DNA from: a bacterium | GTDB lineage: Bacteria; RBG-13-61-14; DATKZS01 | Direction of reading: 5' to 3' | Assembly (NCBI GenBank): GCA_963674965.2 | Contig: CAXXFL010000006.1 | Location: 1,152,001-1,216,000, forward strand | Length of the DNA stretch: 64,000 nucleotides | Shown: positions 9,296 through 33,591 of the stretch, piece after piece | How the letters are laid out: each line of letters opens with the position of its first letter | Position numbering within the stretch: the stretch's first letter is position 1 | The notes under the pieces: model-generated | Databases searched by the model: none | What the model was told of the DNA's origin: nothing | Seen by the model: the letters and a program-made list of their open reading frames with translations, nothing else | Translations under genes and position numbers: made by a program

Positions 9296-9670
9296 GCGCT
9301 GGACGTTTCGGCCATGGCGCGCAACTTTGATAACGCCCGGCCGACGCTGTCCTGGAGGGGATCCCGGTTTCCTCGTCCCCGCCAGTATTGGAAGTGGACC
9401 TTGCCGGACCGGTCTTTTTCAATCTTATCGGCCTTATGCCGTCCGCGGGTATCGGGTTCCACGACAAGTAACGCGCATGACCGTCCCGTGAGACGCCGCG
9501 GTAAAAAGGGCCTTGACTTACATCATTTGTTACATCCTCGTCGGAAAGGCACGCGCGCTAGTAATTATTGTTATCTTTTCGACTAATGCTGATATAAAGG
9601 GGAATCCAATGGTCGCAGCCTTGAGACGACGCGATTTTCCGCGACAAACTTTTTATTGGAGAGGTATTGC

Positions 9671-18019: not shown

Positions 18020-18027
<8 letters not shown>

Positions 18028-18751
18028 CGAACTTGCCGGATAAAAGAGCGTTCCTGGCGGCTTCCTGCTCGGCCTCCTTTTTGCTCTTTCCCTTGCCCAG
18101 GCCGCAGGTTATGCCCTCGACTTTCACCTCGACCTCGAAGGTCTTCATGTGGTCCGGGCCCTGCTCCTCGATGACGCGATAAACGGGAGTGCTTTTATAA
18201 AGGGCCTGGACCCTCTCCTGGAAGGGCGTCTTATAATCGCCCAACAGATCGATGGGAGGAAGGGAATCGAGCAGGGGCTGGAAAAGACGCTCGATGACCT
18301 TGAAGGTCTCGTCGAACCCTCCGTCCAGGTAGATGGCGCCCATAAGCGACTCGAAGGCGTCCTCCAAGATCGAGGTCTTGTCCGCGCCGCCGGTCAGCTT
18401 CTCGCCCTTGCCCAGTCTTAAAGCGTTGCCCAGTCCGAGGTCCCTGGCCAGGTCCGCCAACCTGTCGCAGTTGACGAGCCCAGCCCGAATCCTCGAAAGC
18501 TCTCCCTCCGCCGCGCCGCTGAAACGGAGCATGAGCATATGGGAAACCACCAGCCCGAGGACCGCGTCTCCCAGGAACTCGAGCCGCTCGTAATGGATTT
18601 TTATCATCTCCCTCCCGTCGTCGAGCAGCGACTGGGTGACCTCGTGGGCGAATGACGAGTGCGTCATGGCCCTCTCGAACAGCGCCCCGTTTTTAAAGCG
18701 ATACCCGATCTTGTCCTGGATGACCTCCAGGGACTCGGTATTGTTTCCCAT
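18020..18751 (-). CDS. rnc: Ribonuclease III, C-terminal part of the 698-aa ORF with its own internal RBS and ATG
   Basis: AMTHSS, signature ERLEFLGDAVL, DAFESLMGAIYLDGG, dsRBD (GPDHMKTF..GKSKKEAEQEAA); GGAGA 7 nt before ATG 18751. Confidence 0.92.
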
Positions 18752-20116
18752 CCAATTGTCTCCATTCTCCGTGATATTGTATCCAACGCCCGACCGTATC
18801 TGTATCCGGCCGTTCGGCTCGATCTTGTCGCCCCAAAGGGCCGCGCCGTCATGGGAATATATTTCTACTCGATAAATATTGCCTACCATGTCCGCGCCGC
18901 CATTGCATCCGACCCTTAAGTAATTATCGCTCGTCCCGAATATTTTACCGTCCATCTCCGTTTCCCCGAGCGTCTCCAACTCGAAACCAACCTGTTCCTC
19001 CAGGAAAGCGGCCCTCTTCTTTTTGCCCAGCTTCCTGAGCTCGGCGGCGCGGGCCTTGATGGTCTCCGGGTCCAGATGGCCGGGCATGGCGTCGGCCGCC
19101 GTGCCGGTACGCCTGGAATAAGGAAATACGTGAAGATAGGTCACGGGAAGCTCGGTAATAAAATCAAGGCAGTTGGAATGCTCCCTTTCCGTCTCGCCGG
19201 GAAAGCCGGCTATCACGTCCATGCCAAGGCCGGCCCGGGGCATGGCCTCCTTAAGACGCCAGACGGCCCGCCTCACCGCGTCCACCTTATAGGGCCTGCC
19301 CATGCGGGTGAGGACCTCGTCGTCTCCGCTTTGCAGGGGAACGTGGAAATGAGAGCAGAACAATCCTGAATCGGCCGCGGCCTCGATCAGGTCATCGGTC
19401 AACTCCTGCGGCTCGATGGAGGACAGCCTGATCCTGGCGGGCATATCCCGGCTCCCGGCCAGCAGCTTGAGAAGGTCCGAGAGCTTTTTGCCCCATTCCT
19501 TGCCGTAAAGCCCAATATGCACGCCCGTGAGCACGGCCTCGCGAAACCCGGCCCGGGCCACGCCCCGGAGTTGGCGGACCACCTCGGCCATGGGCACGCT
19601 TCGGCTCGGTCCCCTCGCCACGGTGACGATGCAATAGGCGCAGTTGAAATCGCAGCCGTCCTGGATTTTCACCAGGGCCCTGCCCTTTCCCTTTTGCAGC
19701 CCGCCCTCGGGATGATAGAAAACGGGGGACCGGGGAAGGACTTTCCCCGTCAGTAGCTCGATCACCCTCTCCCGCTGGGAGGGCCCGACCGCCGCGTCGG
19801 CCCCCGCCTCGAGGAGCGCCGGGGCGGAAACCTCGGCCAGGCAGCCGGCGGCGATGATCTTCGCGGCGGGGCCGACCCTCCTGGCCCGCCTGATCATCTG
19901 CAGGCACTGCATCTCCCCCCGCCTGGTCACGGCGCAGGTGTTGACCACGTAGGCGGCCGCCTCGACTTCCTCGTCAACCGCTCCTCCCATGTCCACCGCC
20001 AGGAAAGAATCGGCCGGGACCATGGCCATCATGGCCGCGGTGTCGTAGCGGTTGGCCTTGCATCCCAGCGTGATAAAGGCCGCTATCGGGAGTCGCCTCG
20101 AGCCTTCGCTTCCCAT
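18020..20116 (-). CDS. mtaB: tRNA threonylcarbamoyladenosine methylthiotransferase MtaB, in frame with RNase III
   Basis: TLGCKANRYDT, VNTCAVT, AAGCLA, KIQDGCDFNCAYC (CxxxCxxC), RIRLSSIEP, HVFPYSRRTGT; no stop before the RNase III sequence. Confidence 0.88.
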
Positions 20117-20124
20117 GCTCTCGA

Positions 20125-21252
20125 TTACCCTCTTTCCCCTGGGACGGGTCGCCCGATGGACCCGCCTCCCAGCGCCTCGTCGCCGCGATAGATCACCGCC
20201 GTCTGGCCCGGAGTGATCGCCCGCTGGGGCTCGTCGAATATTATTTCCACTTCGTCCTCGCCGATAAGGCTGACCCTGGCGGCCGCGAGGGGCGCCCGGT
20301 AACGGATTTTCACCGCCACCTTTTCTTCTTCTCCGGGTGGGGAAGAAAGCCAGTTCATCTCCTGGACAACCGCCCTCTTATGGAACAGGTCTTCCCATTT
20401 TCCCACCACCACCCGACGCGCCTCGGGGTCGATGTCCACCACGTAGGAAGGATCGGGACCGGGAAGGGAGAGCCCTTTCCGCTGCCCTATGGTAAAGCCA
20501 TGCACGCCCATATGCGACCCGACCGACTTCCCCTCCAGGTCCACTATGTCTCCGGGAGGGGGGACCGAGCGGCCGAGCGCCTTCTCCACTATCTCCATGT
20601 ACCCGTCCTTGATAAAGCAGACGTCCTGGCTCTCCTCCTTGTCCGAGACGAATAACCCGGCCTCCCGGCAGGCGTCCCTTACCCGGTCTTTCTCGAACCA
20701 GCCCGCGGGCAAAGCCGCCCGGGCCAGTTGCTCGGGCCTTAGCCGGCTGAGGAAATAGGACTGGTCCTTTTTGCCGTCCAGCCCCCGGAGAAGGCGGGGT
20801 CTTCCCGCCGAGTCCCTTGTAACTCTCGCGTAATGCCCGGTGGCGACAAGGTCGGCCCCAATCCTTTGCGCCGTCTCTATCAGGGTCTTCCACTTTACCA
20901 TGGGGTTGCACGTGACGCAGGGGTTGGGCGTAAGACCCTGGGCGTATTTTTGGGCAAAGGGAGTGACAACTTCTCGATACAGCCTCTCCTCGATGGGCAC
21001 GGCCGTGAACTCGATCCCCAGGCATTTGGCCACCCGCTCTGCGTCCACGCGGTCCCGGTCCGGGGATTTTCCTTTGCCCGGCTTAAGTTCTCCCAGGTCG
21101 AAATGCACCGCCGCCAGGGGTACTCCGGTCCGTTTTATGGCCAGGGCCGCGAAGGCGCTGTCCACACCCCCGCTCAGGGCGACCAGGGCTTTGCGCGGCT
21201 TTTTGCCCTCGAGCCAGGGAGGGGACGGACCTATTTCATCGAGAATTCCCAT
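20125..21252 (-). CDS. mnmA: tRNA 2-thiouridylase MnmA
   Basis: ALSGGVDSA, TPNPCVTCN, ATGHYA, KDQSYFL, ESQDVCF, FTIGQRKGL, AITPGQ; start moved to ATG 21252. Confidence 0.93.
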   Translation of the reverse strand: MGILDEIGPSPPWLEGKKPRKALVALSGGVDSAFAALAIKRTGVPLAAVHFDLGELKPGKGKSPDRDRVDAERVAKCLGIEFTAVPIEERLYREVVTPFAQKYAQGLTPNPCVTCNPMVKWKTLIETAQRIGADLVATGHYARVTRDSAGRPRLLRGLDGKKDQSYFLSRLRPEQLARAALPAGWFEKDRVRDACREAGLFVSDKEESQDVCFIKDGYMEIVEKALGRSVPPPGDIVDLEGKSVGSHMGVHGFTIGQRKGLSLPGPDPSYVVDIDPEARRVVVGKWEDLFHKRAVVQEMNWLSSPPGEEEKVAVKIRYRAPLAAARVSLIGEDEVEIIFDEPQRAITPGQTAVIYRGDEALGGGSIGRPVPGERG

Positions 21253-21524
21253 GACCTCACGGGTGTTATTATGTCCCATCTTTACCGGGATTAGAAGCCC
21301 GGCCGGGGTTGCACGGATGCATATCCGCTCGCCGGGTCGGGCGTCACCGTAGAGTCCGGGTCGGATACCATGGCCTGACATTTTCGACAAAATGTAATTT
21401 TTTTCTATACATGAGAGTAAATTTGTGATAAATTGATAAGACCGAAATTCTGTCACCTCGGTATATCATGCCGGGGTTGCCTTGGAAGCTGCGTTGGAAT
21501 ATGCGCGTAAAGGAGTGCAAGCGG

Positions 21525-22532
21525 GTGGAAAACACGGGTGAAAAGACGGACGAGGTAAAAAAACACGTTCCCCGGAACAGGCTGCTCAAGGCCCCCATCC
21601 GGGTGAGGACCGAAGAAGGCGACCATGACGAGGAGTTCACCGAGTACATGATGGAGGTGGACAAGGACCGCATTTACATCCAGACGGATAATCCCTATAA
21701 AGAGGGCACGGTCCTGCATCTGGGTCTCGACCTTCCCGGGATCAACCGTACCATACACTTCAAGGGCGAGGTGGTAAGGATCAACCCCCACAAGCCCAAA
21801 ACGCCCGAGGACTTAGAGCCCGGCATGGGCATAGTCTTCGAGCGGGTCAGTTTCGACAACCGCAAGCTTATCGCCGACTACCTCGAGAAAATCCAGTCTG
21901 AGGACCGCTCGGAGGATTACTCGGTATTCCTTTCCTGGGTCTCGAAGATCAGCCGTCCCATGTCGCCCAAGGAAAAGGAGAAGATCAAAAAGGACCTCCT
22001 CAAGGTCCTCTATGGCGCCAACAAGGAACCCATCCCGGAGAAGCAAAAGAAAAAGACCCCCGAGGAACTGGAGATCATCGCCAGAATTCCCCTCTTCGAG
22101 GAACTTGACGAGATCGAGATCGAGGAGATGGCCCGCATAATGGCCAAGGAAAAATACCGCGCCGGCGACGGGATTTTCGACGAGGGCGACGTGGGCGACA
22201 AGATGTACCTCATCCTGAAGGGAGCGGTGGACATCATCAAGGACACGGGCAAGGGGCCGGGACAGATACTGGTCACCCTCAAGGCCGGAGACTACTTCGG
22301 CGAGATGTCCCTTATCGACGACGCGCCAAGGTCGGCCTCGGCCATGGCCGGGGAGGAAACCATCCTCCTCAGCATCAACAAGAAGCACCTCAACCTGCTC
22401 CTGGACAACTCGCCCACCATCGCCGCCAAAATCTACAAGTTCTTCGTCGCCGTTCTGAACGACAGGCTCAGGGAAACCAACGATAAAATCAGAAGCTTCG
22501 TCAGCATGGCCCAGGAGATGAGCCAGGCTTAA
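21525..22532 (+). CDS. PilZ-like domain plus cyclic-nucleotide-binding domain protein
   Basis: PilZ-like beta region (FKGEVVRIN..PGMGIVFE) and cNMP cassette GDYFGEMSLIDDAPRSASA; GTG 21525 after AGGAG (track start 21468). Confidence 0.8.
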   Translation: MENTGEKTDEVKKHVPRNRLLKAPIRVRTEEGDHDEEFTEYMMEVDKDRIYIQTDNPYKEGTVLHLGLDLPGINRTIHFKGEVVRINPHKPKTPEDLEPGMGIVFERVSFDNRKLIADYLEKIQSEDRSEDYSVFLSWVSKISRPMSPKEKEKIKKDLLKVLYGANKEPIPEKQKKKTPEELEIIARIPLFEELDEIEIEEMARIMAKEKYRAGDGIFDEGDVGDKMYLILKGAVDIIKDTGKGPGQILVTLKAGDYFGEMSLIDDAPRSASAMAGEETILLSINKKHLNLLLDNSPTIAAKIYKFFVAVLNDRLRETNDKIRSFVSMAQEMSQA

Positions 22533-22543
22533 TCCGCCAACGC

Positions 22544-22584
22544 CCCCGGCGCCCGCGGACCAGCACCCGGCGCCGGGGATTTTT
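22544..22584 (+). terminator. Intrinsic terminator after the PilZ-cNMP gene
   Basis: CCCCGGCGCC (22544-22553) pairs with GGCGCCGGGG (22569-22578), followed by ATTTTT. Confidence 0.65.
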
Positions 22585-22653
22585 ATGCCCTGTCATTTTC
22601 CAGGAAGCTTAAAGAGGCTGGAGATATTCTGAGAAAGTATTAATTATGGAAAA

Positions 22654-22684
22654 TTGACATCCCAGGGGGGGGGGGGGGTAGTAT
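22654..22684 (+). promoter_or_regulatory. Putative sigma70 promoter with a G14 homopolymer in the spacer (phase-variation candidate)
   Basis: TTGACA 22654-22659, TCCCA plus G14 (22665-22678), TAGTAT 22679-22684; spacer is 19 nt. Confidence 0.65.
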
Positions 22685-22750
22685 TGTAATTTACAGCATG
22701 GTAACATATGGATGAATTGTCTACAAATCTCGGAGAAGGGGGATTAAGTC

Positions 22751-24064
22751 ATGAGGGCTAAGATTGGAATGGCGTTGGTTGGAGTTTTGGTTATGGCCGT
22801 GGTGGTGGGGATTGCCTGGGCGCAGTCCGCTCCGCAGCTTATCAATTACCAGGGGCGGCTCACGAACGCGGCGGGGCAGCCGCTTGCGGACGGTACTACC
22901 GTTGATCTGACATTCGCTTTCTATGGAGTTGAAACGGGCGGGACCGCGTACCTCACGGTTTTCCAGGAGGACGTGGTGGTCAATGGCGGTATTTACAACG
23001 TGCTCATCGGCTCCGGTACGGTCACGCCCGGTTCCGAGCCCAACCTGGGCGCTGTCTTCCAGAACCACCAGGACGTGTGGATGGGGGTCGAGGTTGAAAG
23101 CGATGGCGAGATGTCGCCCCGGTCCAGGATCGCCAGCGTGCCTTATGCCTTGAAGGTAGAAGGAGGCTGGCTTACGGCCTTTTACAATAAGAGCGATTAC
23201 GACGGGGACGGTTACTCAAAGGTCGTTGACGGGGCCACGGCCACCACGGATTGCAACGATGTCGACGCCTCCATAAACCCCGGCGCGGCCGAAGTCTGTG
23301 ACGACGGTTTCGATAATGACTGCGACGGCAAGATCGACGGTGATGACCCTGACTGCCAGGGAGGAAGCACTGTCGGCCCAATGGCCCTTATCCCCTCCGG
23401 CTGTTTCAACATGGGCGACGCGTTCAGCGAGGGAAGCAGCGATGAACTTCCGGTGCATAACGTTTGCATCACCTCGGACTTCTACATGGACGTTCATGAG
23501 GTGACCAACTCGGAGTACGCGGCTTGCGTGAGCGGAGGGGGATGCACGGCGCCCGGCTATTCTTCAAGTTATTCTCGCGGCTCTTATTACGGTAATCCGA
23601 CCTATGACAATTTTCCTGTTATCTGGGTTGACTGGAATCAGGCCACGGCCTATTGCGCCTGGGCGGGCAAGAGACTGCCCACCGAGGCCGAGTGGGAGTA
23701 CGCTGCCCGTGGCGGCCTGTCCGGCAAACGCTATCCCTGGGGAGATACAGCTACAGCATGTGTTGACGCAAATTACGATTGGTGTATTGGAGATACCAGC
23801 GAGGTTGAAAGCTATCCTGCTAATGGTTACGGTCTTTATGATGTGGGGGGTAATGTTTATGAATGGGTCAACGACTGGTATCAGAGCGATTACTACAGTA
23901 CAAGTCCCACCAACGATCCTCCCGGTCCCGCGTCAGGTACGTCTCGCGTTTTGCGCGGCGGCTATTGGTTCGGCGCTACGCACGACCTGCGCGTGGCGAA
24001 CCGGGCCGGCACTACGCCTACTCTCCGGAGCTACGACATTGGCTTCCGTTGTGCTGGGGACTGA
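22751..24064 (+). CDS. Secreted protein with FGE-sulfatase/C-type-lectin-fold C-terminal domain; probable DGR target
   Basis: Signal peptide; QLINYQGRL..SVPYA N-terminal module; Cys/Asp-rich motif DCNDVDASINPGAAEVCDDGFDNDCDG; FGE motifs RLPTEAEWEYAARGG, NGYGLYDVGGNVYEWVND, RVLRGG..IGFRC. Confidence 0.88.
   Translation: MRAKIGMALVGVLVMAVVVGIAWAQSAPQLINYQGRLTNAAGQPLADGTTVDLTFAFYGVETGGTAYLTVFQEDVVVNGGIYNVLIGSGTVTPGSEPNLGAVFQNHQDVWMGVEVESDGEMSPRSRIASVPYALKVEGGWLTAFYNKSDYDGDGYSKVVDGATATTDCNDVDASINPGAAEVCDDGFDNDCDGKIDGDDPDCQGGSTVGPMALIPSGCFNMGDAFSEGSSDELPVHNVCITSDFYMDVHEVTNSEYAACVSGGGCTAPGYSSSYSRGSYYGNPTYDNFPVIWVDWNQATAYCAWAGKRLPTEAEWEYAARGGLSGKRYPWGDTATACVDANYDWCIGDTSEVESYPANGYGLYDVGGNVYEWVNDWYQSDYYSTSPTNDPPGPASGTSRVLRGGYWFGATHDLRVANRAGTTPTLRSYDIGFRCAGD
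23945..24056 (+). other. Candidate DGR variable region (VR) with 3' IMH end
   Basis: Within the RVLRGG..W....LRVA.R....P..R...IGFRC scaffold, non-scaffold codons are mostly NNC/NNT (tat, ttc, ggc, gct, cac, gac, gcc, ggc, act, ctc, agc, tac, gac), as expected from mutagenised AAY template codons. Confidence 0.7.
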
Positions 24065-24094
24065 TTACTCTTTTGTCCTTTTTAACTCTTACAC

Positions 24095-24122
24095 TTTAAT
24101 GGGGGCGTAAGCCCCCATTAAA
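24095..24122 (+). other. DGR-type target-recognition hairpin/cruciform
   Basis: Perfect 12-bp stem TTTAATGGGGGC / GCCCCCATTAAA with GTAA loop, 30 nt after the target stop, preceded by degenerate TACTCTT-like repeats. Confidence 0.75.
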
Positions 24123-24134
24123 AAATTTTTAAAA

Positions 24135-24320
24135 ATGAAGAAAGAACTTCCCGCTGTTCAAAAGGCGTATGATCTGTGCAAAGAGGTTTTGCCAAGGGTT
24201 TCAAAGCTTCCAAGAGACGTGAAGTTCACACTGGGAGACCGGATAGCCGACAATTGCCTTGCCGTGCTTGAGATATTGCTTCAGGCCGCCGGCGTTACGT
24301 TTTTCAAGAGGCCTCATTGA
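24135..24320 (+). pseudogene. avd: Truncated DGR accessory protein Avd (four-helix-bundle family)
   Basis: ELPAVQKAYDL..LPRVSKLPRDVKFTLGDRI..LEILLQA resembles the Avd N-half; similarity ends at about aa 52, where a MITE-end-like sequence begins. Confidence 0.72.
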
Positions 24321-24386
24321 TTATCCTCTCACCCCGGCTTACAATAATTTCATGTCAAAGAGGCCAATTAATTGGGGAGAATCTTC

Positions 24387-24635
24387 ATGAAAGACGAGGC
24401 TTTACTGGAGCACATCGTTTTAGACGCCACCGTGATGGCCGGAAAGCCGGTTATTCGCGGGACTCGGCTTACCGTTGATTTCATCCTGAACCTTTTGGCT
24501 CATGGCGCCACCGAGGAAGATATCCTGGCCGAATACAAAAGTCTTTCTAAAGAGGACCTCCGCGCCTGCATTCTGTTCGCGGCCGAGGCCATCAGGAACA
24601 CGGACTTTATGCCGCTGGCCGCTAAAACCGTCTGA
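24387..24635 (+). CDS. DUF433 antitoxin
   Basis: VMAGKPVIRGTRLTVDFILNLLAHGATEEDILAEYKSLSKEDLRAC. Confidence 0.85.
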   Translation: MKDEALLEHIVLDATVMAGKPVIRGTRLTVDFILNLLAHGATEEDILAEYKSLSKEDLRACILFAAEAIRNTDFMPLAAKTV

Positions 24636-24745
24636 TGAAATTCATGGTGGAAGAATGTACGGATCCAGCCGTAGCCTCCTGGCTACGATAGCAAAATCAC
24701 GAGGTATTTTCGGTTTTCGACCAGGCCAAGGGCGCGAATTGGTGA
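24635..24745 (+). pseudogene. DUF5615-type PIN toxin pseudogene
   Basis: TGATG coupling to DUF433; reads MKFMVEECTDPAVASWLR*QNHEVFSVFDQAKG with in-frame TAG at 24689-24691, then similarity is lost. Confidence 0.7.
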
Positions 24746-24917
24746 TTGAAAAGGGCGCTCGACCAGCTTCCCGCCGTTCAAGGGAAGTATCTATATAAAT
24801 CCTTGCGGTGTAAAAAGCGGACAAAGATTACGGTATCTCCTTCCAAAGTGAATCCCAACCTGTAATCTCCTATCCTGATCCTGTAATGCCCGCCGCTGGA
24901 CGTCAGCTTTTTCATTA

Positions 24918-25100
24918 GCCTCTTGAAAAAGTCCCGCTTTGGAGTGCGGCGGCTCGACGCCGCTTTTCTTCCGAGCGGCTTGACGCGAGGCTGGCCGTTT
25001 TATTGTAAGGCCTTGTCAAGCCAAGGCCATCGAAAGCGGTCTCAAGCGACCGCGCTCCAAAGCGGCTATGCCGCCAAGAAAAGGACTTTCGCAAAAAATT
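24918..25100. repeat. MITE-like element containing an inverted pair of REP-like palindromes
   Basis: Outer GCCTCTTGAAAAAGTCC / GGACTTTCGCAAAAA; inner CCGCTTTGGAGTGCGG (24934-24949) pairs with CCGCGCTCCAAAGCGG (25050-25065); each arm has its own hairpin. Confidence 0.65.
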
Positions 25101-25194
25101 CTCATATTACCGATTTGCGCGCTGTTTTCCGCTTGCTTGACAATATCGATGGTTTTACGCGCGCGCCCTTTGTAATCAACCTTCAAGCGGCGCC

Positions 25195-25392
25195 TCAGAG
25201 AGCTTTCAAGACTTCATCTTCCGAGACTGAATCGGTGTTTATTCCCTCTTCAATGGCATTGGCCATTGCAAAATCCTCGATTACTTCGGCCATCACCTCG
25301 TAAAACAAGTCCCGGCGTTCAGACGGGGCTTCCAGGACCGCCTCCTTTAGAAGCTCCTTGATTCTTTCCTCGCCAAACAATTGTTCAGCCAT
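25195..25392 (-). CDS. Small acidic antitoxin-like protein with no toxin downstream
   Basis: 65 aa, KELLKEAVLE..EVIEDFAMANAIEEG..VSEDEV; AAGGAGG RBS. Confidence 0.55.
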   Translation of the reverse strand: MAEQLFGEERIKELLKEAVLEAPSERRDLFYEVMAEVIEDFAMANAIEEGINTDSVSEDEVLKAL

Positions 25393-25449
25393 CTTTGTCC
25401 TCCTTCGTAAGCATTTTATCCAAGAATAACCATTTTGTAACTGTATTGG

Positions 25450-25477
25450 TTGACAATAGGCTAAAAATAACTATAAT
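25450..25477 (+). promoter_or_regulatory. Consensus sigma70 promoter of the Fic gene
   Basis: TTGACA 25450-25455, 16 nt spacer, TATAAT 25472-25477; GGAGGAG RBS before ATG 25511. Confidence 0.7.
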
Positions 25478-25510
25478 AACAAAAGTGTAATCGTTTTAGC
25501 GGAGGAGACG

Positions 25511-27043
25511 ATGGCTCAGGAAGACCCAAAAGAAGCTTTGCCAAGACCCGCAGGATACTCTGCGCTCGTTCAGCGGTACGATCTTGATGTGATCCAGAAC
25601 TGGCATGAGTCTTATATCGCGGCCAGTGGAATCCACCGGATCGATTCCACTGGCGATGTTACCGTTGAGACTTATCCTTCTCAATACTGGCCCGGGGATC
25701 GATTGGGCGACCATCTTGAATTCGCGCTCAAGTACGACGGCATCAACCTCGCAATCCTCGCCAGCCTTTTCCAGAAGGCCGACGAAAAAGAAGTCCTGGA
25801 ATACATTGAATCCAAACCGACAGGTAAATACGCGCGGCGGGTCTGGTTCCTCTACGAGTTCATGACGGGCGGGATTCTGCCGATTCCAGACTTGAAGCGA
25901 GGGAACTATATCGACTTGTTCGAGTCCGAATCGTACTACACGGTGAGCCAGGCTCGCAGAGTAAAGCGCCAACGGATCAACGACAATATGTTGGGAGACG
26001 GCAAATTCAGCCCCATCGTGCGCCGAACCGAAACCCTTCTGGCTTTTGAAAAGGCCCATCTGACCGAGCGATGCCGGGAAGTTGTGGCAAGCTATTCCCC
26101 GGAACTGTTGAAAAGGGCGCTGGGATACCTTTACTCCAAAGAGACGAAATCATCCTTCGAGATCGAACACATCAAACCAAGCTCAACGCGCATAGAGCGT
26201 TTCGCGGCGTTGCTCCGATTGGCGGAGCAAGAGGATTTCTGCCGGAAGGAGCGACTGATCGATCTTCAGAACAATATCGTAGATCCCAGGTTTCGGGATT
26301 CCGACTACAGAGCGAATCAAAACTACGTCGGTGAGACCGTGGCCTGGCAGAACGAAAAGATTCATTATGTGTCTCCGAAGCCTGCCGACTTGCCGGGCCT
26401 GATGGAAGGTCTGCTGGAAGCCCATACGCGGATGGAGACAGGCCAAACCCAAGCGGTGATCCACGCCGCCGTCATCGCCTACGGGTTCGTCTTCATGCAT
26501 CCCTTCGAGGACGGGAACGGCAGAATCCACCGTTTTCTGATCCATAACGTTCTCGCCCGAAGAGGGTTTACGCCCCCCGGAGTTATGTTTCCCGTCTCGG
26601 CTTCGATGCTGAAAAACCCGAGTGAGTATGACGCATCCCTCGAAGCGTATTCACGAAAACTGATGCCCTTGATTGAATACTCTCTCAACGAAGAGGGCAG
26701 CATGACGGTCCACGACGATACGGCCATTTGGTACCGCTACCTGGACATGACGGCTCAAGCAGAAGCGCTTTTTCATTTCATTGATCTGACCATCAATACC
26801 GAGCTCACGAGTGAACTGGCCTTCTTGGCCAATTACGACCAAGCCAAGAAAGCCCTGCAAGAGATCGTGGACTTGCCGGACAGACGGGTCGATCTTTTTA
26901 TCCGGTTCTGCCTGCAAAACAACGGGCGAATTTCCTCAAGAAAGCGCGCGAACCACTTTGACTTCTTGTCGGATGACGAAATCGCTCGGATGGAGCAAGC
27001 CGTCCATTCCGCTTATGGGGACATAAATTCCACGCCTAAATAA
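25511..27043 (+). CDS. Fic/DOC family protein (510 aa)
   Basis: Canonical Fic motif HPFEDGNGRIHR; ETKSSFEIE. Confidence 0.9.
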   Translation: MAQEDPKEALPRPAGYSALVQRYDLDVIQNWHESYIAASGIHRIDSTGDVTVETYPSQYWPGDRLGDHLEFALKYDGINLAILASLFQKADEKEVLEYIESKPTGKYARRVWFLYEFMTGGILPIPDLKRGNYIDLFESESYYTVSQARRVKRQRINDNMLGDGKFSPIVRRTETLLAFEKAHLTERCREVVASYSPELLKRALGYLYSKETKSSFEIEHIKPSSTRIERFAALLRLAEQEDFCRKERLIDLQNNIVDPRFRDSDYRANQNYVGETVAWQNEKIHYVSPKPADLPGLMEGLLEAHTRMETGQTQAVIHAAVIAYGFVFMHPFEDGNGRIHRFLIHNVLARRGFTPPGVMFPVSASMLKNPSEYDASLEAYSRKLMPLIEYSLNEEGSMTVHDDTAIWYRYLDMTAQAEALFHFIDLTINTELTSELAFLANYDQAKKALQEIVDLPDRRVDLFIRFCLQNNGRISSRKRANHFDFLSDDEIARMEQAVHSAYGDINSTPK

Positions 27044-27129
27044 ACACCGGCTCGGTCATCAGCGGCGCCAGGTGGACCGTCTCCTGGCCCCTCCCGTTCA
27101 CATTGCCCCGCTACCTCGTCGAACCCGCC

Positions 27130-27290
27130 GCTGGTGACCTTGCCGGCGGGAGCGCCTGATGGCTGGGGCCATGCGGCGCGTCCTCGGCGAGACCGGCCGG
27201 TCCTTTCACCTCGAACCTCCTCCGCCATTGGAGGACGGTGGGACGGGACGTTCCCAACTCCTTGGCGATGGCGTTGTTGGATATGCGGGA
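27130..27290 (-). pseudogene. IS630-family transposase N-terminal HTH remnant
   Basis: Minus strand translates RISNNAIAKELGTSRPTVLQWRRRFEVKGPAGLAEDAP; no start codon or DDE domain. Confidence 0.65.
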
Positions 27291-27337
27291 GGCCGACGTT
27301 TATCAATCCTCATCAGGGAAAACTAAATGACGCGATT

Positions 27338-27405
27338 CCCACCCAGGACGGCGGCCGCTTCGCGGCGCTTGCCCTGGGCTGTGATATCTTGCCCCCGCAG
27401 GGCGC
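27338..27405. repeat. REP-like palindrome
   Basis: CCCAGG (27342) and CCTGGG (to 27378) enclose the hairpin GCCGCTTCGCGGC, followed by a second small hairpin GCCCCCGCAGGGC. Confidence 0.5.
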
Positions 27406-27647
27406 GAAAAATCACTTGTAATAGGGGAACTTTGCGGGATATACTGACAACATGAAGCCAACACTGAGCCGGAAAATTTATTTGATTTTGCCGCCATTTT
27501 TTTTTATTATCATTTTATGTCTGGACCAGTACATTTCATTTATTTGGAACGCAAAAGCTTCAGACGCAAAATTCATCAATCTCGAGATTCAGCGATTTCA
27601 GGAGTGCCATCTCCAAAAATATGAAATATACTCCGAGGGTTTAGTTA

Positions 27648-29411
27648 GTTCCAGTTGCGTAACTAGAAAAAGCCAATAAAAACAATGTGCTGTAAGCATT
27701 TTTCGCTTCCCTTTTTGGTCTTGTTATGATACAATAACTCCTTGAAAAATCAAGGATTGACTTGCCGGGATGCTGTGAAGGGGGCGAAAAATGCGACCGA
27801 AAATTAAAATGCAAATGACCATTGAAGACCACGAATTTTTGAAAGCGGGCCATCTTTTCAAACAAGACACTGAGCTTGAGAAGATGAGCATAGCGCTCGA
27901 CGAGGCCAAGGAAATTCTGGAAGCTGTTGCCGATGATCTCCAAAGCGGACTCAAGGAGACCGGCGCCGAGGGGATGAGCGTCGAGCAGGTCCTTAGGAGC
28001 GCGGTCATCTATCAACTCAAGTGTTATTCCTACCGGGAACTCGGCGACCGCCTCGGTTCCGATTACAATTTCCGCAAGTTCACCAGGTTCTTCGGGCGGG
28101 ACATTCCCCATTTCAGCAGCCTGGAGCGGGCGATAAAACGCATCCGCCCCGAGACCTGGGAGCGGATCAACGAAATGCTCGTGGCCCTGGCCATTAAAAA
28201 AAAAGTAGAAGACGGCGAGGCGGTCCGCGCTGACACCGCGGTGGCCGAGGCCAACATCCACTATCCGACCGACGCTTCGCTTCTTTTTGACAGCATCCGT
28301 GTATTGGACCGGTTGATGAAAGGAGCGCGGAAGGAGCTGCCGGGTCTCGGGTTCGAATATCATGACCGGACTCGGCGGGCCAAGAAGCGCGCTTACCAGA
28401 TCGCCATGGGCAAAGGCAAAGGGATCGAGAAGAAACGGGCGGTCTGGTACCGGGACCTTCTCAAGGTTTCGGCGGAAATCTTGGCCATGGCCCGCTCGGC
28501 GCGGGAGGCGCTGGACGAGGCCCTTAAAGGCGGAGAGCTTTATTTCAGCGATGCGGGCCTGGCAACCATGATCAAGAGCGAACTCGATCATTACCTGCCG
28601 CTTTCTGAGCAGTGCGTCGAGCAGTGCGAGCGGCGGGTTATAAAAGGCGAGAAGGTTCCCGCGCAAGAGAAGGTGGTTTCCGTTTTCGAGCCGCACGTTG
28701 ATATCATCCGGAGAGGCAAGACCATGAGCCCGACCGAGTTCGGTCACAAGGTGATGGCGGCGACGGGAAGGTCGGGGATTGTGCTTCAATATAAAGTGTG
28801 CGAGGGCAACCCTTCCGACGCCGACCTTTTCGAGGACATTTTGCAAAAACACGTCCGCCTGTTCGGCAAGGCTCCACGCGAGTTTACCGGCGACCGCCGC
28901 TTCTATCATGAGGACAATGAGAAGCTTGCGACCGAAGGTCCTTATTATATCGAGCGCCTGGCCATTCCCAAGCCCGGCAAAAGGAGTTCGGAGCGGATCG
29001 AGCACGAGCGTCAGCGCTGGTTCAAGAAGCTTCTTCGCTTCCGGGCCGGGATCGAGGGCGGCCTTTCCGCCCTTCTTCGCGGCTTCGGTCTGAGCCGATG
29101 CCTGTGGAGAGGTTTCGAGAGCTTCAAGTCCTGGGTGGGTCTTTCGTTCTTTGCCTGGAACCTTCGAAAACTCGCGCTGCTGACTTAGCCGCCGCCGGGC
29201 GCGCCCCTGTGGGGGCAATGAAAAACGGAAATGAAAAACAGCAAAAGGAGAGGTGTTTTTTGAAAGGATAGAAAAGGGCCGGCTCAGGCATTCAACTCGC
29301 CTGAAAGCGTTAAAATCTTTTCCGTCCTTTATGGACGCCCTGAAAATCTGCATGTCCATATCCTCTCCGCACCGCATAATGAAAGCCATTAAGCAGTTGT
29401 GCAACAGAAAC
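27648..29411 (+). mobile_element. Complete insertion sequence (ISNCY/IS5-like)
   Basis: Imperfect 17-bp terminal IRs GTTCCAGTTGCGTAACT / AGTTGTGCAACAGAAAC (13/17 match); 6-bp duplication TAGTTA at 27642-27647 and 29412-29417. Confidence 0.85.
27791..29188 (+). CDS. DDE transposase (ISNCY/IS5-like)
   Basis: RADTAVAEANIHYPTD, VSVFEPHVDIIRRGK..TEFGHKV, GDRRF, RAGIEGGLS..RGFGLSRC. Confidence 0.9.
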   Translation: MRPKIKMQMTIEDHEFLKAGHLFKQDTELEKMSIALDEAKEILEAVADDLQSGLKETGAEGMSVEQVLRSAVIYQLKCYSYRELGDRLGSDYNFRKFTRFFGRDIPHFSSLERAIKRIRPETWERINEMLVALAIKKKVEDGEAVRADTAVAEANIHYPTDASLLFDSIRVLDRLMKGARKELPGLGFEYHDRTRRAKKRAYQIAMGKGKGIEKKRAVWYRDLLKVSAEILAMARSAREALDEALKGGELYFSDAGLATMIKSELDHYLPLSEQCVEQCERRVIKGEKVPAQEKVVSVFEPHVDIIRRGKTMSPTEFGHKVMAATGRSGIVLQYKVCEGNPSDADLFEDILQKHVRLFGKAPREFTGDRRFYHEDNEKLATEGPYYIERLAIPKPGKRSSERIEHERQRWFKKLLRFRAGIEGGLSALLRGFGLSRCLWRGFESFKSWVGLSFFAWNLRKLALLT

Positions 29412-29417
29412 TAGTTA

Positions 29418-30494
29418 ACGGGAAACATCGATATTTTATGCATTAACTGCGAAGGAGATCTTGTAGTCGTAGAGCTAAAGAAGAAAAAGACTCCAAGGGA
29501 GGTTGTAGCCCAGGCCCTTGATTATTGCGCCTGCATCAAGGATTGGCCGAACGAAAAAGTGTTGGACGTTGCATCGAATCTTTATCAAAATGAGGACGGA
29601 TTCATCAAGGCTTTCCGCTCTAAGTTCGAGACAGAAGGCATTCCAGAAGTTCTTAACAACCAACAGAAAATCTATATAATGGGAGCTGAGATCGACGCCA
29701 CAACTGAAAGGATCATCGAGTATCTATCAGATGTTTATGGCGTTGGAATAAACGCGGCAACATTCCAGATGTTCAAGGGAAAAGCTGGTGCTTTCATGAC
29801 AAGAATTTATACAAAGACGCCTGAAGAGGTTGATTATAGCGCCAAGACGAAACACAAAAGTAAAAAGACACCACCTCCAACTATAGAGATGTTCCAAGAG
29901 GCGGCAAAGAAGGCCGGCTTTGAGGAAGTCTATAATCACCTATTTGAATGGGCTAGTTATGAATTTGATACCATTCACAGAAGAAAAGCTAGTGTTGCTT
30001 TTAATCTCGAAAAAGCAGTTGTTTTTAACCTTTCGCCCTTTCCGGAATGGAGCGATCCAGAATACGGTCTTAATGCCGGTATTTACGTTGATAGGCTAGC
30101 AAAATATTGTGATGTTAAAAGCGAGGTAATAATGAAATATATTCCAAAAGAAATCGAGAAAGTGGAGTTGAATGAATATGAAGCCAATTTTTATGGGGCC
30201 TATTATCAGGTTTGGTTTAAGACAATGGATGAAGCGGAGAAGTTTACCAAAGGTATCACAAATCTTTTCAGAAAAGTGGAAGGGGGAGGCAATATTGTGA
30301 AATATAATCCAAATTGCGCAATAAATCAACGCTGCTTAACACTGTTAATTTGTCTACATTGCAACACTGCTGTCCAAAATAGGACGGACCTTTCCTTTGC
30401 CCCATTAAAAAACGGGGATTTAGATGGTCAAACTATGGGTTTTCAGGTTGAGGTTATCCCTTTTTTTTCCGCCGGGGCTGTCCAAGACCGCTGA
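29418..30494 (+). pseudogene. NucS-like PD-(D/E)xK endonuclease-domain gene lacking its N-terminus; the 3' end runs into the IS4 remnant
   Basis: Frame just after the IS reads GNIDILCINCEGDLVVVELKKKKTPREVVAQALDY, in frame with track ORF 29559-30494; low GC. Confidence 0.65.
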
Positions 30495-30772
30495 TGGGAA
30501 GATATAGTTGCTCGGGTTTGGGCACGATCGGCTCCACGCCGAAGGGATTGTGCAGCCATTCCGTCAAATCCCGATAAGTAAAGAGGTTCAGCCGCGGCAT
30601 GGAGGCCAGGTTCGAGAACGACCAGCCGGCCATGGATATGTAATGGAGCCACTTTAAAATAAGGATGGCGATCAAGGCTGTCCAAATCTGGATGAGCGGC
30701 GCGTTCTCGCTCGTGCCCACGAAGGACTTGATTTTGAGGTTTTGTTTCAGGGCCTTGAAGAATATCTCGATC
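30365..30772 (-). mobile_element. IS4-family transposase 3' remnant with its right end
   Basis: Minus strand IEIFFKALKQNLKIKSFVGTSENA..IQIWTALIA; terminal TTTTGGACAGCAGTG ending at 30365. Confidence 0.8.
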
Positions 30773-31221
30773 TTGGCGCCGGGGCCGTGAACGCCCGGCT
30801 CGACTCGGAGCCAGGCGGCGAGGACCAGGCGAAATTATCGAACGCCTCTATACTTCACCTGGCGGTTGGCCGCCGCGACAAGGACATAGCCCGGACCCTG
30901 ATCGAGCATGGGGCCGACCCTAACGCCGGAGATTGCCGCGCCGAGTTCATGGGTAATTCCCACGAGGATATAACGCCCCTTCAACTGGCCTTGCTTGCCG
31001 AGCGCGAAATATCCATCGACATGCTCGAGACCCTTCTAGAGGGGGGAGACGGCCTCGAGAAGACGGACTCCCTGGGCCGAACCGCTCTGATGTACGCCGC
31101 GTACGGAGGATCAAAGGACGCGATCGAGTTTCTCCTTGAAAGAGGCGCCGATCCCGACGCAAGGATAACGCGGGCAAATCCCCTCTCGACCTCGCTAGAG
31201 AACTCGGCAACCCCGGCCTGA
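30773..31221 (+). pseudogene. Ankyrin-repeat gene fragment
   Basis: ILHLAV..LIEHGADPNA, TPLQLA, GRTALMYAAYGG..LLERGADPD; 5' end abuts the IS4 remnant. Confidence 0.7.
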
Positions 31222-31326
31222 TTAGCGCTGGAGGAATCATGCGGGGAGAATGAATAAATTGATTTTAGAGCCGCGACGGCCGATCGGTTTTTTTACCTTC
31301 TCATTTTCGCGATAGCGCGATTGACG

Positions 31327-33591
31327 TCATTGCCTTTGCTCGGCCGTGACAGGCATGAATATGACCCTGTATTCCTCTATTTTACAATCCTTCGAATTCA
31401 CGGGAACGATCATGATTCCCTTGATGGACTCAATGGCTATCCAATCCGGATAATTGGCGACTGGAAGAATGATCTTCTTTTCTCCTTTTGCCGTGGAAAT
31501 GGGAAATTGCAGTTTATTGCGTTCATCATAATCGTCGGCGCTATTTTCCTTCCAATATATATATCCTTCAAGGTCTTTTGGATTACGGCATTCTATCTCC
31601 ATGTCTATTTCAATGGAATTGACGATGGAGGGAGTTATATCCATATTTGAAAGAGTGAAAAAAGGATCGTCCGCGGTGGTGACGCATCCGCTGATTGGAG
31701 ACGTTTCGCAATGATGTATTATTAAGCCGTTGCTGAAATTTACCTCGATCGCGGACAAGTCGGTCCCGCTTACAAGCTTTATAACCTGGTTCCTGTTTTC
31801 TACGGTTTTTCTTATACTCTCGGTAACGTCCTCGAATTCTCCCGAGATTTTGTTCCATTTTAGAAAAATGGAAAAATAATCAAGAAAGCACGGGTCTTTT
31901 GGAAGAGTGAAAGGAGACAAATCGAATTTCAGGCGTTTGGTGGACACTCTTTTAAAATCATAGAATTTTTCCACGTCTTTGAATGGTTCGATGGCTAAAT
32001 AGTCTCCAATGGAAACCGCGTTTCCTGGAAAAAGGGCTTGGATTAATTTGCGGGCCCCTGCCGGGTCTTCCCTCATGATCGTGTTCCAATCGGCAAGCGC
32101 GTTTTTCATGCTCGCGATTCTAAGATTAAAAAATCCCCTTGAAGCAAGGACGGTAAATCTTCTTGACTCAAGGCCTTCCCATCTGGTCAACAAATCTATC
32201 GCGTGTTTAATATTTAACTTTCGGTCTGAAAGCAGGGCGTATCTGAACGCGAAGACTATGTCCCATTGGGCCAGGTAATCATCTTTTATTCCTAACGCCT
32301 CATTCACTTCTTCATATGACGCCGGTAACGACGACGTCTTGTTTTGGGGAATAAGGTCGTTGGCGTCCAAGTATCTGATTAGCATTTCAGCTAACTCTTG
32401 TTGTCCATATAACGTTTGATGTACGTGGTCGGTAAAAAATTTATGCCCCAGGTATTCTTTTCCCTCCAGTTTTGATTTAATTAACGTCTCGGAATCCAAT
32501 AAATACGCGCCATCTCCCTTGACCGCTTTCCTCAGGGCCTCGTTGATGGAAGAAGGAGCTCTAACCGGAAGATCGTCAAGGTCGCGAGCAACCTGAAAGC
32601 TTGACCACGCCCGGCCCCATTCTCCTCTTTGCCTTTGCATGATCCCCTTTAAAAAATGAGCAAGAGCGAAATCGGGAGATTTTTCCAGGGCATTAATTAT
32701 TAACGGCTCCGCTTCTTGTATTTTCCCGCTAAATATCAGCCCGTCCGCCTTTTCCAGGTCCCTTAAGATTCTTTCTTTTTCATTGGGTCCGAGGCTGGAG
32801 TCGAAAACCGATTTAATCGGATAGTAGTCAGCCTCGTTTCCTATTACGGTCATGAAAACAACGGGAACGCCATGTTCATTGCAAATTGATATAATGTCCT
32901 TTATGTTTTTGGAAAAAGCTCGAAGTACTTTTTTTCTTTGTTTTGGTGGAAAAAATTCACGGCCATCGTCGGGGTAGTCGAAAAACAAGCCGGGGTCTCG
33001 CGTCACCTTTTGCACATATCTAAGGGCCAGCAGGGAATCGATAATGGAAACGGACCGGGTGTGCCCGGCCAGCCATTTCCAGGCTTCCCCCACTGGCGTG
33101 GGGCCGCTAATCCCCATGGACCGAAACCATCCCATTTCGTTGTGCCCCATATACACGACGCATAGATCGGGCTCATACCGCAAGGATTGCTTAATTACTT
33201 TTTCCACTACGTCACTATTCATGGCCTCCACGGCCAGGTTATAAGCTCTGATATCCTTGTCTCCCCGCCCCTGCAAGTTGAGGATCGTTTCCAGTCTTTT
33301 AGGCAGGGAAGATTTGTCGGCGTAATTGCTTCCGAACATGCTTGAAGCGCCGTAGCAGAAAATCCTGAATTCTCCGGAAGGCTTTGGCACGGAAAAAGAC
33401 GGCTTCAGGTAGGATGGCTCGAATGTAACCTGACGTGGATGCCCCTGGGGGCCGGCGCTGAACAAAGCGTCACTGGTTTTTTCGATGCCGGCAATATATA
33501 AAAGCAGCTCAAGAAGAAGGAAAAGAACAATCAGTGGAATAAAGCTGAAGGTGAGGCGTTTTATCTTCGTTAACTTGTTTTTCATTTTCAT
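31327..33591 (-). CDS. Membrane-anchored SGNH/GDSL-like protein with TPR region
   Basis: N-terminal TM, RIFCYGASSMFG, YEPDLCVVYMGHNE, FTDHVH; TPR-like helices; lower GC than flanks. Confidence 0.7.
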   Translation of the reverse strand: MKMKNKLTKIKRLTFSFIPLIVLFLLLELLLYIAGIEKTSDALFSAGPQGHPRQVTFEPSYLKPSFSVPKPSGEFRIFCYGASSMFGSNYADKSSLPKRLETILNLQGRGDKDIRAYNLAVEAMNSDVVEKVIKQSLRYEPDLCVVYMGHNEMGWFRSMGISGPTPVGEAWKWLAGHTRSVSIIDSLLALRYVQKVTRDPGLFFDYPDDGREFFPPKQRKKVLRAFSKNIKDIISICNEHGVPVVFMTVIGNEADYYPIKSVFDSSLGPNEKERILRDLEKADGLIFSGKIQEAEPLIINALEKSPDFALAHFLKGIMQRQRGEWGRAWSSFQVARDLDDLPVRAPSSINEALRKAVKGDGAYLLDSETLIKSKLEGKEYLGHKFFTDHVHQTLYGQQELAEMLIRYLDANDLIPQNKTSSLPASYEEVNEALGIKDDYLAQWDIVFAFRYALLSDRKLNIKHAIDLLTRWEGLESRRFTVLASRGFFNLRIASMKNALADWNTIMREDPAGARKLIQALFPGNAVSIGDYLAIEPFKDVEKFYDFKRVSTKRLKFDLSPFTLPKDPCFLDYFSIFLKWNKISGEFEDVTESIRKTVENRNQVIKLVSGTDLSAIEVNFSNGLIIHHCETSPISGCVTTADDPFFTLSNMDITPSIVNSIEIDMEIECRNPKDLEGYIYWKENSADDYDERNKLQFPISTAKGEKKIILPVANYPDWIAIESIKGIMIVPVNSKDCKIEEYRVIFMPVTAEQRQ

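Follow-up and report, generated by a model that had tools for sequence, protein, structure and literature searches.

Can one bacterial surface protein be subject both to hypermutation of its binding tip and to on-off switching of its expression? This question is raised by a 437-codon gene at 22751..24064 (+ strand) of a 64,000-nucleotide (nt) stretch of contig CAXXFL010000006.1 (assembly GCA_963674965.2, positions 1,152,001 to 1,216,000), hereafter called the window, from an uncultivated environmental lineage. A first-pass annotation had described the gene as the secreted target of a diversity-generating retroelement (DGR) placed under phase-variable control by a run of 14 G (G14) in its promoter. 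We find that the protein has the features of a DGR target and that the promoter has the anatomy of a switchable one, and that the window holds neither the reverse transcriptase (RT) nor the template repeat (TR) of a DGR. The explanation that we consider best, and to which we give about an even chance, takes the locus as a self-contained cassette for a DGR target, remote or recently orphaned, whose promoter is switched by slippage of its G14 tract.

Results

The target is a secreted protein with a lectin-type C-terminus

The open reading frame (ORF), Pfam and NCBIfam searches, an AlphaFold2 model and Foldseek comparisons together define a product made up of a signal peptide (residues 1-24), a MAT_N-like module (about 17-126), a flexible linker, a MopE/acidic disulfide motif (167-204) and a domain of the formylglycine-generating enzyme (FGE)-sulfatase type (211-435). 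The signal peptide, MRAKIGMALVGVLVMAVVVGIAWA followed by QS after the cut, was read off the sequence by eye and marks the product as one secreted by the Sec route. Pfam assigned residues 211-435 to FGE-sulfatase (PF03781, E 2.6e-60), whose fold is that of C-type lectins, and residues 167-196 to MopE (E 4.4e-11). In a sequence search of the PDB, FGEs were the best matches (E 7e-48), and TvpA of Treponema denticola (2y3c) was recovered at E 3.9e-26. The AlphaFold2 model built from 121 homologues had a pLDDT (predicted local distance difference test) of 87.8, with values of 95-99 in the FGE domain and of 87-92 in the N-terminal beta domain (residues 30-126); an earlier model from 19 close homologues (pLDDT 40.8) was discarded. 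Foldseek matched the model to FGE (E 3e-24) and to TvpA 2y3c (E 8.9e-16, template-modelling (TM) score 0.69). The signal-peptide protein ending in an FGE or C-type-lectin domain that had been claimed for this locus is thus well founded. Among viral models, Foldseek returned FGE-domain phage proteins along with fibre and Ig-like matches of low quality (T7 tail fibre, E 7.4e-6, TM 0.27/0.18, root-mean-square deviation 9.5), from which we draw nothing on the fold of the N-domain.

The cysteine pair of FGEs (human C336/C341) is absent from the target. When it was compared with 2afy, 2aft, 6muj and 2q17, one cysteine fell where the query lacks 3 residues, and the other corresponded to Thr410; entries 2aft and 2afy are themselves titled as C336S and C341S mutants. 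Judged by these residues, the target is not a catalytic FGE.

The variable region bears a codon signature of adenine mutagenesis

The DGR-type variable region (VR) spans 23939..24061 (+), with hypervariable codons at 23942-24040 (residues 398-430). Conservation across 19 aligned full-length relatives falls away in the segment RVLRGGxWxxxxxxLRVAxRxxxxPTxxxxxxGFRCA. The relative P0001 is 94% identical to the target and differs from it at 16 of 34 VR residues against 10 of 403 residues elsewhere (Fisher p 1.2e-13); over residues 101-397 the two proteins show zero differences.

The ungapped VR frame fits 67 of 120 homologues, in which 15 hypervariable columns were counted. Across these columns, 43 of 1005 residues are non-NNC residues, and column 426 contains Q (26 homologues), R (11), L (4) and P (2), which is the set encoded by CNG codons. 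At the nucleotide level, eight VRs were compared, namely that of the window and those of seven other loci. The third base of their 15 hypervariable codons (120 codons) is C in 99 cases, T in 18, G in 3 and A in 0, positions 1-2 of these codons use all four bases, and codon 426 is CGG or CAG across the eight VRs. Read from the codons, this pattern is what adenine-specific mutagenesis leaves behind when the template codons are AAC (and CAG). The VR-like 3' end proposed by the first-pass annotation is therefore borne out, and strengthened by the NNC codons, by the comparison with P0001 and by the homologue spectrum.

A template of the expected kind was present in a paralogue from a related metagenome-assembled genome (MAG), L074, which has its leader and signal-peptide start in common with the window gene. 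An AAC-rich TR lies there 170 nt after the VR. All 22 mismatches between this TR and its own VR fall at adenines, of which the TR has 35, and 0 fall at the 88 other sites. The window VR aligns gap-free to the same TR.

A candidate recognition hairpin and an avd remnant follow the variable region

The VR is followed by the stop codon and a pyrimidine-rich 3' flank at 24062..24094 (+), for which a six-locus alignment gives the consensus TGATTACnCTTTnGTnCTTTTTCnCTTTTACnCTTTG. Beyond this flank, at 24095..24122 (+) and beginning 30 nt past the stop codon, a perfect inverted repeat folds around a GTAA loop into a hairpin that may serve in DGR target recognition. All 12 of its 12 base pairs (bp) are formed, 6 of them GC; the DNA fold energy is -13.5 kcal/mol, with z = -4.8 and 0 of 200 shuffles equally stable, so that the hairpin stands as it had been described. 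G-rich hairpins occupy the same position in L078, L003/L004, L074 and L001, and the 3' flank, the hairpin and the start of avd are conserved across six loci.

The avd-like fragment reported downstream proved to be a genuine 5' half of avd, on which three libraries agree. It comprises 52 codons at 24135..24290 (+), after which the ORF continues in unrelated sequence to a stop at 24318-24320. The ORF 24135-24320 matches Pfam bAvd (E 2.1e-4), PHROG phrog_3206, 'Avd protein of DGR' (E 1.9e-8), and NCBIfam NF033474, DivGenRetAVD (E 2.1e-9), the last with 37.6 bits against a cut-off of 80 and over positions 1-48 of a 104-position profile; on this profile the full-length Avd relative P0121 scores 93.6 bits. 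The stub is 71-92% identical to residues 1-52 of eight full-length Avds (P0121-P0128, 108-126 residues). A search with these eight proteins did not find the 3' half of avd in the window (best E 0.13). The lectin/FGE fold, the codon signature of adenine mutagenesis, the hairpin and the avd remnant together lend strong support to the assignment of the protein as a DGR target.

The same arrangement recurs at related loci. All five of the closest target loci with readable downstream sequence contain only avd stubs: L078 has the target, the flank, the hairpin and 22-23 avd codons followed by HicB/HicA, L003 and L004 have about 13 avd codons followed by HicB, and L001 and L002 have about 10 avd codons. 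Such recurrent avd-stub cassettes offer a practical handle for finding remote DGR targets.

A G14 tract fills most of the promoter spacer

Upstream of the gene, an exact consensus -35 hexamer (TTGACA, 22654..22659, +) is followed by tccca, by the uninterrupted G14 tract (22665..22678, +) and by a -10 hexamer TAGTAT (22679..22684, +), which agrees with TATAAT at 4 of 6 positions, with T1, A2 and T6 kept. Every part of the promoter proposed earlier is therefore in place; its spacing needs correction, since the spacer (22660-22678) measures 19 nt and not the optimal 17 nt. A consensus scan with 16-18-nt spacers found no promoter-like site in 22254-24225, and so none from the terminator to the start codon; it misses the TTGACA/TAGTAT pair because the spacer is 19 nt long.

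The tract is exceptional for this DNA. The window has eight homopolymers of at least 8 bases, and the only ones of at least 10 bases are G14 and a G10 at 4122-4131. With an independent-base model (G 0.292, C 0.289; our own arithmetic), about 0.004 G/C tracts of 14 bases are expected per 64 kb. The G10, with no obvious flanking promoter hexamers, lies in a 630-nt gap that has a methyl-accepting chemotaxis gene (2075-3793, -) on one side and a gene for a PAS/GAF hybrid histidine kinase (4424-7495, +) on the other. In the same gap, at about 4281, a TTGACATCCC string is identical to the start of the target promoter.

A promoter pattern search was run on both strands of 80 related loci and the window (1.15 Mb). 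TTGACA followed by at least five G and by TAnnnT occurs three times in this set, each time directly upstream of an FGE-type target gene. The window promoter (G14 spacer, 19 nt, TAGTAT) can be set beside those of paralogous target genes in other genomes, at L001:5420 (tcaaaaa-G8-TATTAT, 15-nt spacer) and at L002:9755 (actgc-G7CGG-TAAAAT, 15-nt spacer), and beside a fourth homologue at L001:336 (aatgcaGGGGCGGGAG-TAGAAT, with the spacer aatgca-GGGGCGGGAG, 16 nt as counted by hand). The -35 and -10 hexamers (TTGACA, TAnnAT) are kept in all four homologous promoters, the window included, and this conserved footprint supports them as real promoter elements; the G runs of the paralogues are 8, 7+2 and 4+3, compared with 14 in the window. 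The comparison shows that a G-rich spacer is ancestral in this promoter family and that the window tract is an uninterrupted expansion, which makes its spacer 3-4 nt longer than those of the homologues. G14 is probably a real tract that has expanded and is prone to slippage; in its sequenced form (G14, 19 nt) the promoter is likely to be weak or off. The phase-variable control put forward by the first-pass annotation has a sound anatomical basis, with G14 in the spacer and hexamers conserved upstream of paralogous targets, and as a proposal it gains from the homologous promoters; their own shorter or interrupted G runs mean that switching would not be common to the family.

The promoter is followed by a leader of about 60 nt (22685..22750, +) with a conserved motif GGATGAATTGTCT, a ribosome binding site GGAGAAGGGGGA at 22732-22743 and GTC before the ATG. 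The leader motif and the start context GTCATGAGG are common to the window, L001, L074 and L078, and the alignment of these four shows invariant ATGA.T.G and GTCATGAGG blocks. No Rfam family was detected in 21000-30000 (E<=1), and the conserved leader is therefore not a known RNA element.

The gene is bounded upstream by a terminator-like stem

The upstream neighbour of the target gene is a cNMP-binding/PilZ gene (21468-22532, Pfam), at the 3' end of which lies an intrinsic-terminator-like stem-loop with a U-run (22544..22586, +). The terminator claimed ahead of the promoter is present in the form of a GC-rich stem (22544-22578) followed by AUUUUUAU, with an RNA fold energy of -26.1 kcal/mol and a modest support of z = -1.5 (15 of 200 shuffles equally stable). 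The stem is absent from a consensus terminator scan because its loop exceeds 8 nt. This predicted terminator sets the target gene apart as a transcription unit of its own.

The N-terminal module is remotely related to MAT fibres

NCBIfam NF053851 (Bdello_MAT_N), the profile for the N-domain of Bdellovibrio mosaic adhesive trimer (MAT) fibres, matches residues 17-107 of the target (E 2.3e-8, 34 bits). Residues 24-150 were searched against 1.84 billion cluster representatives, and relatives of the module numbered 18,653 at E<=1e-3 and 1,914 at E<=1e-10. Among the 150 relatives listed, the module is mostly found at about residues 21-150 in proteins of 90-1542 residues. A Pfam scan covered 60 of these 150, each of at least 255 residues and with an N-terminal module, and it found MopE in 16, LVIVD in 8, SBBP in 3, Laminin_G_3 and Kelch in 2 each, and FGE, LRR, Lectin_C and Peptidase_S74 in 1 each; 32 of the 60 had no Pfam family at E<=1e-10. 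NF053851 is matched by 18 of 20 tested N-domain relatives, at 29-47 bits (E<=1e-6). A search of the ESM Atlas with residues 24-150 gave a best score of 0.83, under the meaningful level.

These searches show that the N-module belongs to a very large mosaic family, related at a distance to the cell-proximal N-domain of Bdellovibrio MAT fibres; its profile score makes it a remote relative of NF053851 and not a member. The target would thus work like a short MAT-type adhesin with a DGR-type lectin domain as its tip. The suggestion of a surface adhesin or receptor gains from this MAT-like module, and is weakened by a score of 34 bits where the cut-off is 60.

Discussion

The preferred explanation and its alternatives

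If the locus is a remote or recently orphaned target cassette with a slippage-switched promoter, its binding tip would have been rewritten by mutagenic retrohoming in the recent past, and it would be rewritten further only if an RT and a cognate TR elsewhere act in trans on the VR end and the hairpin. G14 would gain or lose G by slipped-strand mispairing. Tracts of G10-G12, which give a 15-17-nt spacing (the range of the homologues and the sigma-70 optimum), would be 'on', and spacings of 18-19 nt or more would be 'low/off'. The sequenced G14 allele would then represent the low/off state, with most cells lacking adhesin display and a minority displaying it. Both phase variation and ongoing diversification of the locus we infer from its sequence.

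Several observations weigh against this explanation. The first-pass annotation had assumed a working DGR, and this part of it does not hold. No TR and no further copy of the VR turned up in the 64-kb window (the top non-self blastn hit at word size 7 has E 0.098, and none of the repeat families overlaps the VR), RT families are found in 0 of the 60 distinct ORF translations of the window and in 0 of 31 ORFs downstream of targets at the loci of the closest relatives, and avd is truncated, its homology ending at 24290, residue 52 of about 115. The locus is therefore not a complete DGR, and present-day hypermutation would need an RT and a TR elsewhere in the genome. Of the 88 non-adenine sites in the TR of L074, 18 are mismatched to the VR of the window, and this TR is thus not the cognate template of that VR. 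The loop of the hairpin, GTAA, is outside the published GRNA consensus, and the hairpin also satisfies a terminator-like pattern. With G14 the promoter fails the 16-18-nt scan and could be a dead one. In the homologous promoters the G runs are shorter or interrupted and the spacers unusually short; switching is therefore not a conserved trait of the family, and the 'on' length is a guess. Every MAT_N match is under the curated 60-bit cut-off. Finally, the closest PepA in the protein collection of P0001 is 77% identical to the PepA of the window; because no correspondingly close PepA is present in that collection, P0001 could represent a paralogue, or an allele acquired by transfer, and not a population or strain variant. 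Whichever of the two it is, its differences concentrate in the VR.

The missing parts could also mean that the locus is a relic, in which the DGR has been destroyed, the VR is frozen and G14 is a neutral or degenerative expansion that silences a gene no longer selected for regulated expression. Where the rest of avd, the TR and the RT once were, there would now be an insertion sequence, a Fic gene and what is left of a toxin-antitoxin module. In keeping with this, avd is cut at 24290 with its 3' half not found in the window, the window holds no TR or RT, a low-GC stretch with an ISNCY-family transposase extends over about 24000-30500, the five closest target loci with readable downstream sequence have only avd stubs, and the 19-nt spacer fails the promoter scan. 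Remnant targets are moreover described for T. denticola strains without a complete DGR in the account given by PMC4891356. On the other side, nothing has broken the 437-codon frame, the 12/12-bp hairpin or the conserved 3' flank, the avd stub keeps 92% identity to a full-length Avd, and the VR is massively different from that of P0001 despite identity over the preceding 297 residues, which indicates a diversification that is evolutionarily very recent. We regard the relic as possible, though on the unlikely side. A rather improbable alternative leaves the DGR aside and takes the G-rich spacer as a stable regulatory or structural feature of the promoter, such as a regulator site or a strength-setting element, in which extra G tune strength with no meaningful stochastic switching. 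G-richness is indeed kept in four of four promoters without conservation of purity or length (G8, G7CGG, G4CG3AG and G14), and two of the four tracts are interrupted and so stabilised. Stability of an uninterrupted 14-G tract would however be exceptional, and such a run far exceeds the tracts of 7-11 G that are reported to vary in T. pallidum isolates (PMC7864442).

The G tract, or its length, might also be an assembly or sequencing artefact that hides a true promoter of ordinary spacer length and with fewer G. Every sequencing platform makes errors in the length of homopolymers. Artefacts of this kind do occur in these assemblies: in an unrelated MAG (L046), G14 and G11 runs stand beside Illumina adapter-like sequence at a contig end (4392-4420 and 4590-4660, minus view), and this poly-G is an assembly artefact that calls for caution with poly-G calls. 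The window tract has coherent genes on both sides and stands 22 kb in from the edge of the window, and G7-G8 runs are found at the homologous promoter position in independent assemblies, which indicates that the G run is real and only its exact length uncertain; an artefact is accordingly judged unlikely, and we put it well down among the explanations considered. Least credible, to the point of being nearly dismissed, is that the protein is a catalytic FGE or a related oxidase with a C-terminus that varies by ordinary divergence. It is true that FGEs are the top matches by sequence (E 7e-48) and by Foldseek (E 3e-24), but the cysteine pair is lost to a gap and to a Thr, the gene has the NNC codon signature and DGR elements on its flank, and the protein has a signal peptide and an adhesin-type N-module. 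The remote or orphaned, slippage-switched target cassette can finally be extended to a dispersed repertoire of MAT-like adhesin cassettes, each with a slippage-prone G-tract promoter, a DGR-writable lectin tip and a recognition hairpin, and all served in trans by one RT/TR. On-off choice of the displayed adhesins would then combine with hypermutated binding in a two-layer, receptor-repertoire-like recognition system of a possibly predatory or epibiotic lineage. This extension is a speculative one, and we think it doubtful.

Comparison with known systems

FGE-type targets form the largest class of DGR targets, with 71 of 372 DGRs in the survey of Wu et al. 2018 (PMC5758913). Remote targets and incomplete DGR loci diversified in trans are described in the same survey and in PMC10907252; since trans-diversified loci and DGR-less remnants are both documented, both fates are possible for the window locus. 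The closest described protein, TvpA of T. denticola (2y3c), shares with the target an FGE-sulfatase-type lectin domain with the VR at the extreme C-terminus. TvpA is also a secreted protein without the FGE cysteine pair, in a system where targets can lie far from the RT (PMC5758913; PMC4891356). The window target differs from TvpA in having a MAT-like N-module and a MopE motif before its lectin domain, and its locus differs from the TvpA DGR in having no RT or TR within 64 kb, a retained avd stub and a G14 in the promoter spacer. Target loci without their own RT and/or TR are likewise found in Thiohalocapsa PB-PSB1, as reported by Dore et al. 2024 (PMC10907252), and are there diversified by components elsewhere; that system differs from the window in that its cognate TR was identified, by a perfect match outside the adenines, and that metagenomic reads showed the diversification.

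The hairpin can be compared with the target site of the Bordetella phage BPP-1 (initiation of mutagenic homology site plus hairpin/cruciform), since in both an inverted repeat that is short and perfect lies some tens of bp past the VR and encloses a loop of 4 nt. DGR target hairpins as described by Guo et al. 2011 (PMC3240598) stand 4-34 bp from the VR, with stems that are GC-rich and 7-10 bp long and with GRNA loops of 4 nt; the window hairpin agrees with these in position and in loop size. The window differs from BPP-1 in its 12-bp stem with 6 GC pairs and in its loop, GTAA and not 5'-GRNA, and its candidate hairpin may double as a terminator.

Poly-G tracts between the -35 and -10 hexamers control tp0126 of T. 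pallidum and porA of Neisseria meningitidis, with expression optimal at 17 nt, and in T. pallidum the tract length varies within isolates, over 7-11 G (PMC7864442). The window has in common with these two genes a homopolymeric G run between the hexamers of a sigma-70-type promoter of a surface-protein gene, both of them predicted here. It differs in its longer tract (14), in its uncultivated environmental lineage and in the DGR-type variable protein that it would control.

MAT fibres are surface-displayed, with an invariant N-domain beside the cell surface and diverse adhesive tips, as summarised in Caulton et al. 2024 (PMC10769870). The target family resembles the Bdellovibrio MAT proteins in its conserved N-module right behind the signal peptide, followed by diverse C-terminal tips (Peptidase_S74 in one relative). 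It differs in that window-type matches reach 29-47 bits, below 60, and in that the target has 437 residues and no predicted beta-helical shaft. We know of no MAT tip that is diversified by a DGR. Through the MAT-like module, lectin tips diversified by DGRs would be tied to a huge family of mosaic surface fibres or adhesins (18,653 cluster representatives), which gives a hint of the anchor and of the purpose of such targets.

DGR work has been centred on the rewriting of the VR, and the control of expression of the diversified proteins has been little explored; the word 'promoter' occurs 0 times in the DGR surveys PMC5758913 and PMC10907252. Among literature judged from titles and the beginnings of abstracts, we found no described case of a DGR target controlled by a simple sequence repeat, in agreement with the earlier statement that no case of this combination was known. 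If G14 switches the gene, contingency-locus phase variation and retroelement hypermutation would be joined on one gene, and the logic would be like that of pathogens that combine phase variation with gene conversion, here in an environmental lineage.

Other features of the window and of related loci

Past 24290, the window continues with a DUF433 antitoxin-like gene (24387-24635, +; Pfam DUF433 E 9.9e-22), an 18-codon stub that overlaps it (24635-24688, +), a Fic-domain gene of 510 codons (25511-27043) and an ISNCY-family transposase gene (27791-29185; NF033593, 404 bits). The segment 24387..24688 is best read as replacing the rest of the DGR; it shows where the break occurred and has no share in the mechanism. 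GC content is 0.37-0.53 at about 24000-30500 (and at 31200-32000) compared with about 0.6 in the flanks, and the Fic-domain and transposase genes both lie in this low-GC stretch, which also holds an ankyrin-repeat gene and an ORF of 311 residues. This stretch, which abuts the target gene, was probably acquired as an island. A perfect sigma-70 consensus (TTGACA, 16 nt, TATAAT; 12/12) stands at 25450-25477, upstream of the Fic-domain gene.

Toxin-antitoxin modules directly follow the avd stub or the TR in four independent loci, with DUF433 and the stub in the window (24291-24688) and HicB/HicA in the three others: L078:1472-2007, L004:1638-1868 (and L003), and, after the TR, L074:1515-1996 (HicB-like/HicA). 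Beside these modules, which recurrently take the place of the DGR core, avd is cut at differing codons (52, about 22 and about 13). In L078, the first 48 codons of a window-like target (49-192, 83% identical) break off and are followed by a lipoprotein-type FGE target (254-1345); this break is evidence of recombination or mosaicism among target genes.

The VR/TR pair of L074 lies at 847-1290, with no avd or RT in the 10 kb downstream; its contig starts 113 nt before the target gene, and an upstream RT is possible. Tried as the template of the window VR or of the orphan VRs L004 and L005 (same MAG), the L074 TR was ruled out, with 17-25 mismatches at the 88 non-adenine sites. L005:7613-11821 encodes a 1403-residue tandem-VR target with two FGE-sulfatase domains, VR-like ends at 9468-9627 and 11682-11841, and four MopE motifs. 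Genes for Ser/Thr kinases containing TPR repeats (L001:7909-10395 and L004:2997-5465) lie about 1-2 kb from orphan FGE-type targets in two MAGs. Elsewhere in the window, a 698-codon frame (18020-20116, -) encodes an MtaB/MiaB-like radical-SAM methylthiotransferase (residues 13-418) fused to a complete RNase III with a dsRBD (466-690).

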